Below, one piece after another: positions 50,497 to 62,612 of a stretch of DNA of 64,000 bases; positions within the stretch are counted from its first letter, which is position 1; each line of letters starts with the position of its first letter. Location of the stretch: NCBI GenBank assembly GCA_039545335.1, contig BCIN01000011.1, positions 62,001 to 126,000 on the forward strand, in the 5' to 3' direction. The DNA comes from Kondoa subrosea. Taxonomy: Eukaryota. The notes beneath the pieces are model-generated. The model was not told the origin of the DNA. It searched no databases and saw only the letters and a program-made list of their open reading frames with translations. A program made the translations under genes and the position numbers.

Positions 50497-53400
50497 ATGC
50501 CCTCTTCAGCAGCAGAGGCGGTGGATGAGCAGGAAGATACCCCTGTGACTGCTGGACATACCACAGATCCCAATACCCAAGGCGCAAATGCACAGATCAA
50601 TGGACAAACAGCTGAAGATAATAATGAAGAGTCGGATTCTGAGGATTCTGAAGACGATGAAGAGCCTACATTGAAGTACTCGAGGCTGTCGATCCCTCCT
50701 GAACTGCTGGAACGTGACAATGCGTCTGCTTTAGCCGTCTCGAATCGTTTCCTGGTCAGTCCTATTCTGTGAGCTTTGTCCATCACGGAGCTCATGAGTG
50801 GTATAGGCTATAGGTACTCATGCAGGAGGAGTAATCATATCTGATTACAACGGTCACATCGCAAAGAAGTTCAAACCGCATACAGCTTCAGTCTTAGGTC
50901 TGAGCATAGATACTGGTAGCGAATTCGTTGCCAGCGCTTCTCTGGATGGTCAAGTCGCTATCGTCTCTCTTGGAGATGCAGACTCGCACGTTTTCAATAC
51001 TGGTCGACCGCTACGCGCAATAGCTCTCGAGCCAGACTTTGGGAAATCTAGAACTAGACAATTCGTATGTGGCGGGTTATCCGGCGCTCTGGTACTACAC
51101 GAAAGAGGATGGCTAGGTCATAAAGAAGTCACTATCCATTCCGGCGAAGGACCAATTTGGGCAGTTTCTTGGAAAGATAGCTTGATTGCTTGGGTCAACG
51201 ATGAGGGCGTCAGGATCTACGACACTCGTTCAAGCAGTAAAATCACCTATATCGCTAAACCAAACAATGCACCTCGAGTGGATCTCTTCAAATGTTCTTT
51301 GCATTGGCAAGATTCTCGAACGCTCTTAATCGGTTGGGCAGACTACATCAAAGTAGCTATTTTGAAAGAGAAAGAACGATCTCAGCTCAGCGCTGTAGTA
51401 CCAACGACTTCTTCCTCTCTGCAAGCTGAAATCACTGCAATCTTCCAAGTTGATTCCATGATTTCTGGCATTGTACCTTTTAAATCAGATGCCTACATCA
51501 TCCTAGCCTACCTGACAGAAGAATTAGATCCCAATTCAACAAAAAGACAACAAGCTTCTCGACCTGAACTTCGAGTTATTTCTCATCACGAAGGTGAAGA
51601 GCTTTCTTCCGATGCTCTTTCTTTAGCTGGATTTGCAAAATATCAATGCAATGATTACACCCTCATTCCTGCACCAGAAGAAGAAATTTATTACGTTCTC
51701 TCTCCGAAAGAAATTGTCGTTGTTAAACCTAGAGATCAATCGGATCATATTGCCTGGCTTGTTGAGAAGAGGAAGTATGAAGAAGCTTTGACTGCAGTAG
51801 AGAAAAGCGGTATGGCTGGGGTATTGGAAGGTTATGATGTAGTTGAAATTGGGACAAAGTACTTGCAGCATTTAGTAGCTGAAGGTCGGTTCGACCATAT
51901 CTGCTTCAGTTTATAGCTGATGCGTAGATATGATAATCGACAGGCGAGTATGCAAAAGCGGCAGAAACTTGTCCAAAAATTCTAGGTCAAAATGCCAAAG
52001 CATGGGAAGATTGGATCTTCTTGTTCATCGAAAAGGGTCAAATACAGGTGAGCTAGAGTCTGAAAAACCAAGTACACAACTCATCGGTGTCATAGACTAT
52101 CATTCCTTATATACCTACCCAAAAGCCTCAGCTTGATCGAGTTGTCTATGAAATGGTCTTGGCTCACTTCTTGCGTTACGATCCTCCTGTCTGTCCTGTG
52201 TCTTGTCGGGCTCCGATGAATACTGATAGTCTGTCAGGCACTTCTTCGCACTATCCGTACTTGGCCGCATGCAATCTTCGAGAAACCTACAGTCATCCTA
52301 GCGATAGAAGGCGCATTGGATAGGTCAAAAGACCAAAATACACTCATGGAATGCTTAGCAGACCTGTATGCCTCTTTTCATTTCCGATATCTAACATTCT
52401 GATCGATAGTCAACCTAGATATCTATCAAATCGTCAACCTGGCAAAGCTCTGCCATACTTCCTCCGCTTACGTCGACCAGGTGTCTTCGATCTGATTAGA
52501 GATAACAACCTCTTCACCGACGTGCAAGATCAAGCTGTACTTCTGCTTGACTTCGATCGAGATGTCAGCAAGAAACAAGGTAAACAGCCAGCCAAGGACG
52601 ACATTGCACCTACAGTATCCAGACATGGCGCTGCTATCGATCTGTTGACAGAACACACACATTCCATCCCTGTTCGTATTCATTTATATGCTTGTTTTGG
52701 AGAGCAAGATTCTTACACCTTGAGCAGATACCTCGCGTTGTAAACCAGCTTCGTTCTCACCGACAATACCTTTATCAATACCTTGATGCTCTCTTCGACA
52801 AAGATCCACATCTAGCAGCTGACTACAGTGATCTCCAAGTGAGCCTTCCACAGAGTGAAGTAATACGAGCTGACAAGTAAATCAGGTTGACTTATACGCT
52901 GAGTATGAGTATCCTCGTCTCATGGATTTCCTGCGCTCGAGCAGCTACTATGCTTTGGAAAAGGTCCGTCCATACTTTTGATAAGTTTTACTTCTTATTG
53001 AAACGGAAGCCAGGCCTACGAAGTCTGTAGTAGTCGAGACTTAATACCGGAGATGGTCTTCCTACTTGGTCGGATGGGCAATAATAAGAAAGCCTTGAGC
53101 CTAATCATCGAACGACTGGGCGATGTGCAAAGAGTGCGTAGAAGGGGGCATAAGCCGAACTCGGCTCAAGTGTTTTCCTTCATATGTACAGGCTATCGAT
53201 TTCGCAAAGGAACAGAATGACGGAGATCTTTGGGAAGATCTGCTCAAGTATTCCGAAAGCAGACCGAGTACGTCTTTGTCCTGAAGTGCTTTTGAAAAGC
53301 TCAATGTATATCTTAGCTTTCATACGAGGACTGTTGGAGAACGTTGGACCAGAGATAGATCCTGTCAATCTGATACGCCGGATCAAGAACGGCTTAGAAA

Positions 53401-53994
53401 TACCTGGCTTGAAAGGAGCGCTCATCAAGATCTTGCAAGACTTCAATTTACAGGTATGCAAGATTGAGATTATTCAGCTAGATCTGATGTGTTCCGATCT
53501 TCTATACAGATTTCCCTTATGGAAGGCTGCGAATCGATATTATACAGCGATTGTCGCTTGCTATCTGTGCGGCTCAACAAGGGTCAGACAAGAGCTTACT
53601 CTTGCACTCGTGAGTCGCTGCCCACGAAGATCAATTATCAATGCTTACTAACATCCGTGCAGCCGCTACAATTTGCGACGAATGCAATACTCAACTCTTC
53701 GATCAATCGCTCGGCCCAAATGCACCATCGACTAGAGCAGTCATCGTTATGTTTCTCTGCCGACACGTCTATCACGCAGGCTGTGCTTTTCCGTCGGTAG
53801 AAGCTAATCTTCCTTCAAGACCTGAACATGCTCTTTCAGCTTCAAACTCGCTTCTGAGTAGCGACAAAAAGGTACAAGATTTTGATGGACAGTTTCGCAG
53901 TCGGACTCGATTTGTAGCAGATCTGCGAACGCAGGTGAAGACTGTCTGTCCTCATTGTGAGCAGAAAGCGAAATTAGGCGTAGGGCGATCTTAA
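50497..53994 (+). CDS. VPS41: HOPS subunit Vps41
   Basis: EEPTLKYSRL, WD40 region (IALEPDF, IAWVNDEGVRIYD), PRDQSDHIAWL, clathrin-repeat region, C-terminal RING (CDEC..FLCRHVYHAGC..CPHC). Confidence 0.95.
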
Positions 53995-57653: not shown

Positions 57654-58678
57654 GTGTCGATGCAAGCAGGGAAAGAAGAAGAGGATTGGACTCCAGAAAA
57701 TTGCTGAATGGACAATATGCAAACAATTTAGAAACTTATATAGTACACTAGATTCAATATGGAATATAGAAACCTTGCCATTTATTGTCAATGAGCGCAA
57801 TATTCACAATTGTCGTGTTCTGAATCGGGAAAGATAAGCCTGGGCAAGCGAATGGAATAAGCCCACTATTGCATTAACGCGACATTAAATAGTGGCAAAG
57901 ATTGTGCAGACAAGAAGTCGAAATGCAAAATCGGTTTTGCAAAATCGGGTTTCATTGACGAAAGATGCAGAGTATGTTTGCCCTTTATACTACTCCGCAA
58001 GCTCGTTATAGAACGAGTGTCAGCTATTTTGTTCTTGATACTGACGAGCAGAGTCCTTGGTAGGGCGCGAATCGACATGCGATATGATAGGTTTACTTTA
58101 GCACTTTCGAGATCCAGAAGATATCTCAAGTTCGACAGATACGTGAGTAGCATGAAGCAGCGCATCCTCGAGCCTATGATGGTGCAGTGAGATCCCCGAC
58201 CTAAGCAACGGAGTTGCTGGGAGGGCTCTAACGAATTACGCCACACATGGTTTATGGCATTTCGAGTCTATAAAACTAGGTCGGGGATTAGCTTCGGCAG
58301 AGGCGGTTGTGATCTTAAGAGTTCAGGGAGTAGCAAAGTAATTTTGAAGACTCGACTTCATCGACGCAAGAAGAGCAGCAGACGCCCAGATCAGAGAGTA
58401 GAGTGACAAGATTGGTAGACTACAGCAGCTTGATTCGTAGGCACAAGCGCGGTACAGGGGAGTTCGCAAGATGATGTTCAGCAGAATACACTTGTGCATC
58501 AATCTGAGGCCACTCGATGGAGCCATCGGCTGCCAGCGCTGTTGAAAGTGCGGTATCTATGTCATGTGTATCTCTTTTGACGCGCACATCGTGGCCTTAG
58601 GTGAAAATGCATGAATATTGAATTCTGCACTCTTGCTCGAGCAGCGAGTGATCTTCTGCTGTCCCTCGCTCGACTATC

Positions 58679-60414: not shown

Positions 60415-62612
60415 TCAAACGGCCATGATAGGAACCTTCTCTTCCACTTTTGGCGCTTGAGATGCTTGAGCAGCTTGTGCGAACATATGGTCGGCAAGCC
60501 CTTGAGCGAGCTGATAAGGAGGACCTGTACTACGTGTGAGCTTTGTGCCTGCATCGCGATGTAGATCGCCCACCAAAAGCGGCCAGGTAATCGGGCTTGT
60601 CCCCTCTAACGAAAACACCTCGAGGATTGGAAAACTCGAGGAAACCTTCTTTGCCATGATGACGGCCATAGCCAGAGTTGCCGCTTCTACGAACCACCGC
60701 GGCACATGAGCGAGAGTACGGAAATCTTTATTCGTTCTCACCCTCCGAAGCCCATTGATGGCAAAGCACCTGGGTATATCTCAGCAAGGTTCACTTTAGT
60801 ATCTGATGAGATCTACCTTGAACTGCAGCACAGTTGACAGAAGCTCCACCACTGCGGAAAGATGGAGATGAGTGAATAACGAAATGCTTCTCGTTTTATC
60901 ACTTACGAGTTTGTGTTGCTCAATACTTGCTCAATAGCAGCTTTATCCTCTCCATATACATACAGACCAAGAGGGCGAGGTTGAGAGTTGATATGATTGA
61001 TAGCGTCCTCAACTTGATCATAGGATTTGAGTGATAAGATTGGACCGAAGATCTCTTCCGATGCTACTCTGGTGTTAGGCTTGGCTTCAACTACCACGGT
61101 CAAAGGGATTTGTCGCTTATTTTGGCCGCTGGCTGCTTCTGACTCGAGTGTGACGACTTGCGCCCCGCTTGAAGTTGCTTCTTTGACCATGTCTTGAATG
61201 CGTTCCATGTGTTTGCTGTAAGAAGAGATGTGAATAAGCAGCCAAGTCGACCATCAAGCAAAACTCACGTGCTGATGATACCAGTGCAATCATCACTCTT
61301 TGAATAGCTAGGGAATTGACTTTTCATCGTTTCTTGCGCCAATTCAACGAACTTCGACATGTCGTTTTTCGCAACATGTACAGTGTCAACCGAGATGCAC
61401 ATCTAGTGAAAAATGCTCAGCTGAATGCGCTGATAGGACTGTATGATCTACTGACTTGACCGCTGAGAAGCATGATTCAGCATATAGCTCACAGTATAAG
61501 ATGTGCTACAACTTACTTTTTGACCATTTTGATGTTGATGATTGCATCAACATTGGCTTTGGTGACAGCTCCAGCAAGCATAATAGCAGGACACTAGAAG
61601 GTCTCAACAAACGAACCCGGTTCATAGAAGAGGACTCACTTTGCCGCCCAATTCTAACGTGAGAGGGACCTTTCAGCAAAGTTAGCGCAAGGCCACGTAC
61701 ATCGGAAGGCGATATCTACCAAATTAGTAGCCGCTTCTCTCATGATCTGCTTAGCTACACCAGGTGAACCTGCATACCAACGTCGGCATGCGTCATAGCT
61801 CGACAGAGCAACAGACTGACCAGTGTACAATAAGTGATTCCAAGGCATCTTGCTGAAAGCTTTTGAAAGCTCCAAATCGCCATTGACGACAGCGACAAGA
61901 TCACGAGGGAAAGTAGCAGAAATCATCTTCTCAAGTAGTTTTCCACAAGCAGGTGAGAGTTCGGAAGGTTTGATAATAACTCTATTGCCTGCTGCTAGCA
62001 TTTCGCACAAGGGTCCCACACTGAGGTCGAAGGGAAAGTTCTACAATGCGTGTTAGTACTGGGCGCAAGCTGGAAGCTGAGTCTTACCCCTAGCGAATGG
62101 TATTAGTATATGTTGCATGAAGTATTGTAGAACTCACATGGTACAATATTGCCAATGACGCCCTTTGGCTGATACCTGATGAACGCTCGTCCATTGCCAT
62201 AGATGTTCTCATCCGTATGGCGAACATCATCTGCTGTCCATTGTTCCAATTGTGATGACACATGCTGTAGATTCAACCGTCATTAGGGAGAGCATTGGTA
62301 ACAGGAAGAGCTTACCTGAGCACGACCAGCAGGACCTAAGACCTCGATTAAATCCGAAGCCCCAAATCTGCAACTCACAATATGTCAGCTTTGTGACTTC
62401 ACATGCAAGAACCATATGACCAACGGATGATTGCCAAAGTCAGCAGATAGAGCCTGTCTAATCTCCTCGCGATGCATCATCATCATCCCAGCGATTTTGG
62501 CCAGCCTGTTCTTTCGCTCATCCAATGACGGGTTCTGATCCTGGAGGAAGGCCTTGCTCTGCTCTTCGAAGATCTCATTCAGCGCTTCTATTGCTTTAGC
62601 ATCGTTCGACAT
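60415..62612 (-). CDS. Aldehyde dehydrogenase, coniferyl-aldehyde dehydrogenase (CalB)-like, ~12 introns including 2-nt and 7-nt micro-exons
   Basis: ADFGNHP, YQPKGVIGNIVPWNFPFDL, LAAGNRVIIKPSE, LYTGS, LELGGK, KNGQMCIS, EEIFGPIL, PRPLGLYVY, GFGG..GYGRHHG. Confidence 0.92.

Follow-up and report, generated by a model that had tools for sequence, protein, structure and literature searches.

How is a tryptophan codon read when its first base closes one exon and its other two bases stand between two introns? The question is raised by a 64,000-nucleotide (nt) stretch of DNA from Kondoa subrosea (assembly GCA_039545335.1, contig BCIN01000011.1, positions 62,001 to 126,000), hereafter the window, whose minus strand carries a gene of the aldehyde dehydrogenase (ALDH) family. 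In this gene, the tryptophan of the conserved VPWNFP motif (Trp123) appears to be encoded by three exons, the middle of which, GG, is 2 nt long. An earlier note on this DNA had proposed such a micro-exon, together with ordered splicing and a possible regulatory role. The explanation that we favour, and hold to be quite probable, is that of a 2-nt exon lying between two canonical introns that would be removed stepwise, perhaps with an RNA helix acting as a mask. The anatomy of the site, the uniqueness of the splicing solution and the integrity of the gene can be read directly in the DNA, and from these we infer a mature mRNA in which GG is included.

Anatomy of the Probable 2-nt Micro-Exon

The gene and the parts of the site are the following:

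60415..62612, minus strand: coding region of the ALDH gene, coniferyl-aldehyde-dehydrogenase-like; 15 exons, 14 GT-AG introns, a coding sequence of 1482 nt, 493 amino acids
62138..62264, minus strand: exon 3, 127 nt, ending ...GGC AAT ATT GTA CCA T, in phase 1 within the Trp123 codon
62090..62137, minus strand: intron 3, 48 nt, with a GTGAGT donor, TACTAAT at 62108-62102 and a CTAG acceptor
62088..62089, minus strand: exon 4, the putative micro-exon GG, 2 nt, bases 2 and 3 of the Trp123 codon (VPWNFP)
62041..62087, minus strand: intron 4, 47 nt, with a GTAAGA donor, TACTAAC at 62058-62052 and a GTAG acceptor
61821..62040, minus strand: exon 5, 220 nt, beginning AAC TTT CCC (Asn124-Phe-Pro); matches Pfam Aldedh, with 70-80% identity to relatives

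In the best explanation, 62137-62041 would thus consist of two independent canonical spliceosomal introns of 48 and 47 nt around a constitutive coding exon, and joining ...CCA T with GG and AAC... would produce Trp123 of VPWNFP. The layout of T, 48-nt intron, GG, 47-nt intron and AAC TTT CCC reproduces, on the minus strand, both the coordinates and the motifs of the earlier note. Each of the two introns is complete, with its own donor, branch site and acceptor, and with a length typical of the gene, the other 12 introns being 46-57 nt long. TACTAAY occupies intron positions 30-36 in both cases, placing the branch adenine at 62103 in intron 3 and at 62053 in intron 4, i.e., 13 and 12 nt from the respective 3' ends. 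Between them, the YAG acceptor and the GT donor directly abut GG (CTAG/GG/GTAAGA at 62093-62082). Alignments by tblastn with three homologues stop exactly at the Trp codon: upstream they run into ...GNIVP-CEF, and downstream they resume with NFPF at 62040.

The Two Bases as the Only Canonical Way to Restore the Motif

Splicing solutions at the Trp site were enumerated using all GT or GC donors and all AG acceptors, with introns of 35-160 nt when single and 35-120 nt when paired, and with inner exons of at most 30 nt. Nine solutions are in frame, two of them with a single intron and seven with two introns, and PWNFP is restored by just one, GTGAGT(48)-GG-GTAAGA(47), which yields ...GNIVPWNFP. 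This agrees with the claim of the earlier note that only two introns around a 2-nt exon restore VPWNFP. The two single-intron options use weak donors, GTACCA (62144) and GTCATT (62159), and lose VPW or VIGNIVPW; the other in-frame solutions delete one or the other of these same stretches or insert residues via GC donors. Removal of the 97 nt as one piece, which amounts to exon skipping, gives CCA TAA and hence a stop directly behind Pro122, so that the note's claim that treating the region as one intron breaks the reading frame is borne out as well. A single intron of 97 nt would, moreover, be about twice the normal intron length of this gene. Retention of intron 3 leads to a stop 11 codons further on.

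The arrangement also stands out from the surrounding DNA. A strict intron signature (GTRAG, a length of 40-65 nt, and ACTAAY 8-20 nt before YAG) has three occurrences in the 128 kb made up by the two strands of the window, and the adjacent introns 3 and 4 account for two of them; two neighbouring signatures of only three in 128 kb exceed what chance would give.

The motif itself is nearly invariant. A scan of 307 family members returned 189 motif instances, all of which have exactly one residue at the Trp123 position before Asn. This residue is Trp in 186 instances (preceded by Pro in 171, Ala in 11, Ser in 3 and Thr in 1) and Phe in the remaining 3.

A Second Putative Micro-Exon Before the Catalytic Cysteine

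A second candidate micro-exon, of 7 nt, lies further along the same gene:

61463..61516, minus strand: intron 8, 54 nt; its positions +11 to +18 are complementary to the acceptor of intron 9 and the beginning of exon 10
61456..61462, minus strand: exon 9, putative micro-exon of 7 nt, C GGT CAA, encoding N-G-Q before the catalytic Cys253, from enumeration and homologue collinearity
61403..61455, minus strand: intron 9, 53 nt; the second arm of an 8-base-pair helix is made of its last two bases, AG, and of ATGTGC in exon 10

Exon 9 is the only enumerated solution giving KMVKNGQMC, and the donors involved are GTAAGT and GTCAGT. Both micro-exons, of 2 and 7 nt, fall in the two most conserved catalytic motifs of the enzyme, in agreement with a remark made for fungal P450 genes, in a passage of the work on them, that micro-exons are found where introns sit within motifs (PMC12940212).

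Complementary Sequences Across Both Micro-Exons

Sequences on the two sides of each micro-exon are complementary to each other. At the 2-nt exon, the arms are:

62124..62135, minus strand: helix 1, arm 1, intron 3 positions +3 to +14, pairing with 62036-62047
62036..62047, minus strand: helix 1, arm 2, the final 7 nt of intron 4, acceptor AG included, and the first 5 nt of exon 5

Folding of the 2-nt unit predicts 12 base pairs (bp) for helix 1, of which 11 are Watson-Crick pairs and one is G-U. At the 7-nt exon, helix 2 joins 61506-61499 in intron 8 to 61404-61397 (AG at the end of intron 9 and the adjoining ATGTGC in exon 10) by 8 Watson-Crick pairs. Both helices are present in the minimum-free-energy and in the centroid folds of their units.

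The pairing was compared across the gene between two segments of each of the 13 consecutive intron pairs: the 5' segment held the initial 25 nt of the upstream intron together with 3 nt of exon, and the 3' segment held the final 15 nt of the downstream intron together with 10 nt of exon. Uninterrupted Watson-Crick pairing extends to 11 and 8 bp at the two micro-exon units, but no further than 3-5 bp at the other 11 consecutive intron pairs; that the micro-exon units rank as the top two among 13 has a probability of p = 1/78. Runs of at least 8 bp are seen in 1 of 169 mismatched intron combinations and, in the same geometry over the whole window, at a proportion of 0.007 of the sampled positions (0.0007 for runs of at least 11 bp). 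The window was also scanned for donor-proximal arms pairing, by 8 bp or more, over an acceptor located 80-150 nt downstream; this gave 10 rows for 8 distinct loci, and the micro-exon units make up two of these.

Several points weigh against a role for these helices. Folding of the whole units is not significant (z of -0.94 and -0.37), and only the closing helices stand out. Their predicted probability depends on context: with flanks extended from 10 to 300 nt, it takes the values 0.93, 0.59, 0.14, 0.58 and 0.51 for helix 1, and 0.83, 0.34, 0.03, 0 and 0 for helix 2. Arm 1 overlaps positions +3 to +6 of the intron 3 donor, and the donor consensus together with the Asn-Phe codons accounts for part of helix 1. 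The I2-I3 unit has a predicted cross-pairing of 0.92 as well, in that case from short helices. The six other loci of the window scan speak in the same direction, five of them having no inner micro-exon candidate and one (55733, plus strand) a weak candidate. Finally, the comparison of intron pairs was designed after the first helix had already been seen.

Paired arms at both micro-exon units are, as far as this analysis goes, a new observation, and they may have the masking role that is proposed below. An alternative reading is that the helices are a relic of how the introns arose. That they represent a general RNA mask in fungi that splice by intron definition, in which the start of an upstream intron pairs with the downstream acceptor, thereby enforcing the order of removal and barring the skipping of ultra-short exons, is a speculative idea to which we give limited credence. 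It is nonetheless open to computation on the micro-exons of Coprinopsis cinerea (see below) and to compensatory mutation, and complementarity at both units thus offers a concrete, mutable hypothesis for how the spliceosome might include an exon too short to be bound as an exon.

The window holds one further case of long complementarity. At 58187-58279 (plus strand), a perfect 12-bp complementarity links a stretch just past a GTRNG donor-like site to a YAG located 93 nt downstream; this may be an intron with pairing ends.

Proposed Order of Intron Removal

The intron 3 acceptor and the intron 4 donor are only 2 nt apart and could hardly be engaged at the same time, which is why the two introns are probably excised sequentially, one by one. 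Helix 1, in which the beginning of intron 3 pairs with the end of intron 4 and the opening bases of exon 5, is proposed to mask the outer acceptor for as long as intron 3 is in place. Such masking would favour removal of intron 3 first and of intron 4 second, and it would block the direct joining of exon 3 to exon 5, i.e., the skipping that creates TAA and that we regard as lethal. The ordered splicing put forward in the earlier note is therefore a reasonable proposal, to which cross-exon complementarity lends indirect support, while the order itself is deduced.

Alternative Explanations

Two observations weigh against the micro-exon itself. The first comes from the closest named orthologue, an annotated protein of Phenoliferia psychrophenolica (P0311, RQP46_008533), which is 57.6% identical to the ALDH of the window and has VPFNFP, so that Trp is not invariant in this clade. 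The Phe of this protein could be genuine, or it could be the product of a gene model at a similarly split codon. The second, which the earlier note overlooks, is that the cDNA CCATGGAAC would equally be produced by excising 62136-62042 (95 nt, with TG...TA ends): because 62137 and 62041 are both G, junction cDNA alone cannot prove the micro-exon.

Among the other explanations, regulated inclusion survives best, although we consider it improbable. The earlier note had suggested that skipping could act as an on/off switch, through a premature stop and nonsense-mediated decay, and helix 1 could be imagined to loop out the unit. The one fact behind the switch is the TAA that skipping would bring into frame at once, ahead of 11 exon junctions; helix 1, in addition, draws the outer donor and acceptor together. 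However, the acceptor AG lies inside the helix and would hence be masked instead of presented, and RNA structures able to mask splicing signals have been described, as can be read in a passage on the subject (PMC3239191). The like arrangement at the 7-nt exon, in a catalytic motif of housekeeping type, likewise argues for a constitutive device.

Somewhat less probable again is that GG is unproductive, either because this is a decaying copy, because the main transcript skips the exon and stops after Pro122, or because VPW is deleted in frame. The last version can draw on the single-intron alternatives that are available in frame (donors GTACCA at 62144 and GTCATT at 62159), but these donors are weak and the residues dropped are near-invariant in the 189 motif instances. 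A decaying copy is further at odds with 15 exons that are open over 493 amino acids, with intact Cys, Glu and Asn motifs and with 53-58% full-length identity to relatives.

The excision of one non-canonical intron, 62136-62042, in a single step and with no micro-exon, would give an mRNA that is identical at CCATGGAAC, owing to the G found at both 62137 and 62041. We see very little room for it: to our knowledge, TG...TA ends match no known spliceosomal class, and each half of the region has a full donor, TACTAAY at positions 30-36, a YAG and a normal size of 46-57 nt. An assembly or sequencing error, for instance one hiding a true genome with an intact TGG beside a single intron, is the least credible of all, as 48 extra bases with a complete intron signature are beyond the reach of a small indel, no N occurs in the window, and none of the gene's other 12 junctions shows any irregularity.

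Several origins and classes were also considered for the two introns. Their origin by tandem duplication is rejected as unsupported, the score of their global alignment being an unexceptional fifth among 91 intron pairs. A proliferating intron element is not apparent within the 64-kb window, which has no further copy of either unit and a best other match of 12 nt. The site does not qualify as a zero-length recursive splice site, since two bases separate acceptor and donor and removal of the full 97 nt gives CCA TAA; nor is it a stwintron, in which an internal intron splits a splice signal of an external one and the whole is removed, as complete excision would here wreck the reading frame.

Gene Model and Family

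The gene model was assembled from tblastn searches with three homologues and from Pfam matches of exon translations. Built from homologue matches in this way, it has introns of 46-57 nt, all 14 of which are GT-AG. Two of the four exon pieces tried, those from the two longest exons, gave a match to Pfam Aldedh (PF00171, gathering cut-off of 23 bits): exon 5 (39.8 bits, E 2.7e-10) and exon 11 (62.9 bits, E 2.8e-17). Ten homologues, each with PWN[FY]P, align collinearly with the 493-amino-acid model, as do 11 further relatives. Asn124, Glu219 (ELGGK) and Cys253 (NGQMC) line up with the homologues, and EEIFGP is also intact. We take Cys253 to be the catalytic cysteine, Glu219 the general base, and Asn124, which follows Trp123 in PWNFP, presumably the oxyanion-hole residue, as in ALDHs in general. 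With a profile match above the gathering score and the catalytic Cys, Glu and Asn in position, the protein belongs to the ALDH family.

A finer assignment was sought with the orthologue P0311. Among solved chains, its nearest match is 9nxl, a steroid aldehyde dehydrogenase (E 1.4e-86), and class-3 ALDHs come next; the orthologue reaches no NCBIfam equivalog cut-off, the top model being MdlD with 260.9 bits against a cut-off of 550. On the strength of these sequence comparisons, the gene is assigned at the level of the family, to the ALDH3 or coniferyl-aldehyde-dehydrogenase-like branch, with no substrate-specific equivalog.

The gene is dense in introns, with 14 in a coding sequence of 1482 nt, or about one per 106 nt. 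Judged by the spacing of tblastn matches, the Vps41 gene of the window (about 50665-53967, plus strand) seems far poorer in introns per length.

Relatives, Intron Positions and Phylogeny

The search with exon 5 retained 1759 of 1810 candidate proteins at E <= 1e-3; the best are 76-80% identical, and the best matches include one protein of Phenoliferia and two of Chaetothyriales. With exon 11, an exhaustive search of representatives gave 2220 proteins at E <= 1e-3 and a top identity of 55%, and a word search a top identity of 47%.

Among 34 relatives, the motif reads PW in 26 and PF in two (the annotated Phenoliferia protein and an unnamed one), and the other six are fragments that start with ...A-W-NFP. 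In all six fragments (P0020, P0331, P0335, P0339, P0377 and P0417), the residue before Ala is coded by NCA or ATA. This pattern fits read-through of an acceptor, NAG/CN TGG, and therefore an intron that would interrupt the Pro codon in phase 1, at a site 3 nt upstream of intron 3. As judged from these codons, it implies that ascomycete-like relatives would possess an intron in the VPWNFP motif as well, at a shifted site. Elsewhere along the protein, P0324 terminates as if an intron were present at the position of intron 8, and P0019 seemingly has its two ends at intron sites that correspond to introns 10 and 11. A scan of metagenome contigs for degenerate GNIVP codons followed by T and GTRAG gave at least 119 loci; none of the 119 listed shows similarity to ALDH (tblastn, E <= 1e-3).

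A quick, unrooted tree was built from 59 sequences, most of them without taxonomy. The fungal ALDH sequences form a single clade in it (support of 99 in the Shimodaira-Hasegawa-like approximate likelihood ratio test, SH-aLRT), with the window protein as sister to Phenoliferia (SH-aLRT 97). In this unrooted tree, the fungal clade is placed among bacterial groups, to which it is 53-54% identical. Identities of 53-58% are seen alike with fungal and with bacterial relatives. A possible history is that the ALDH gene passed between bacteria and fungi long ago and gained introns thereafter.

Genomic Context

Matches to Pfam in 5 of 18 long open reading frames identify other genes of the window, namely those for Vps41, a histone deacetylase, Ima1, a PfkB kinase and a Sel1-repeat protein. 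The best relatives of Vps41 (50807-51916, plus strand) are from Microbotryomycetes, with 57-59% identity, as against about 45-50% for agaricomycetes. The GC content of the window is 45.6%. Judged by its best matches, which are in Pucciniomycotina yeasts, the lineage appears to be a sparsely sampled basidiomycete.

Comparison With Known Systems

Exons of a few nucleotides have been reported in several eukaryotes, and the papers cited here are drawn on through passages of their text. The closest parallel is found in another basidiomycete with short introns, C. cinerea, whose long-read annotation counts 13 single-nucleotide exons, 57 exons of 2 nt spread over 50 genes, and 27 exons of 3 nt (PMC12230235). 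Of the 89 gene models that contain an exon of at most 3 nt, 63 acquire a premature stop if that exon is omitted (PMC12230235). The C. cinerea exons are backed by long reads, unlike the ALDH case, which is deduced from DNA; they are enriched in P450 genes, and the text passages of that paper mention neither an ALDH case nor a flanking RNA structure (PMC12230235). With 57 exons of 2 nt in one species, the description of such exons as rare in the earlier note is overstated for basidiomycetes (PMC12230235), while its statement that they are routinely missed by annotation is consistent with what can be read in the literature on fungal micro-exons (PMC12940212; PMC12230235).

In Fusarium, the CYP621A P450 genes have a 1-nt exon that is conserved in 20 orthologues and supported by 18 SRA reads (PMC12940212). 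As in the ALDH gene, this micro-exon lies in a conserved motif (PKG in that case), with a G between AG and GT, and was missed by automatic annotation; it was found, as here, through a phase mismatch and an apparent intron of more than twice the median length (PMC12940212). The two cases differ in that the Fusarium exon is of 1 nt, comes from an ascomycete and is supported by reads and orthologues, whereas the ALDH exon is of 2 nt, comes from a basidiomycete and is known from its sequence (PMC12940212). In Arabidopsis, a substitution of the exon base, followed through to the cDNA, proved the 1-nt exon of APC11 (PMC4674806). This exon resembles the ALDH exon in being a constitutive ultra-short exon that is required for the frame, but belongs to a plant gene with long introns (PMC4674806).

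Stepwise removal also has precedents. At the zero-nucleotide ratchet points of Drosophila, an acceptor stands next to a donor and the intron is removed in steps, as proposed here; nothing is retained at these points and the introns are very long, whereas the ALDH gene keeps 2 nt between introns of about 48 nt (bioRxiv 10.1101/006163). Fungal stwintrons likewise involve two consecutive splicing reactions within a short intervening sequence, and some of them have terminal inverted repeats (PMC8469720). However, stwintrons are nested and wholly removed, while the ALDH introns are neighbours separated by coding bases (PMC8469720). The inverted repeats differ too, with 12 bp in the ALDH unit versus 45-55 nt in stwintrons (PMC8469720), and the ALDH unit has no sister copies in the window.

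No report of this ALDH micro-exon was found in the literature searched, although similar cases could be present in the supplementary lists that accompany the C. cinerea and Fusarium papers. Exons of 2 nt being already documented in fungi, the ALDH case most likely adds a further, well-supported but unproven example. If the 2-nt exon is real, automatic models of this ALDH gene would be wrong at the cofactor and oxyanion motif, as well as at the 7-nt exon by the catalytic Cys. The gene would then stand beside the fungal P450s, to go by the passages that describe these, as one more instance of micro-exons placed inside conserved motifs (PMC12940212).

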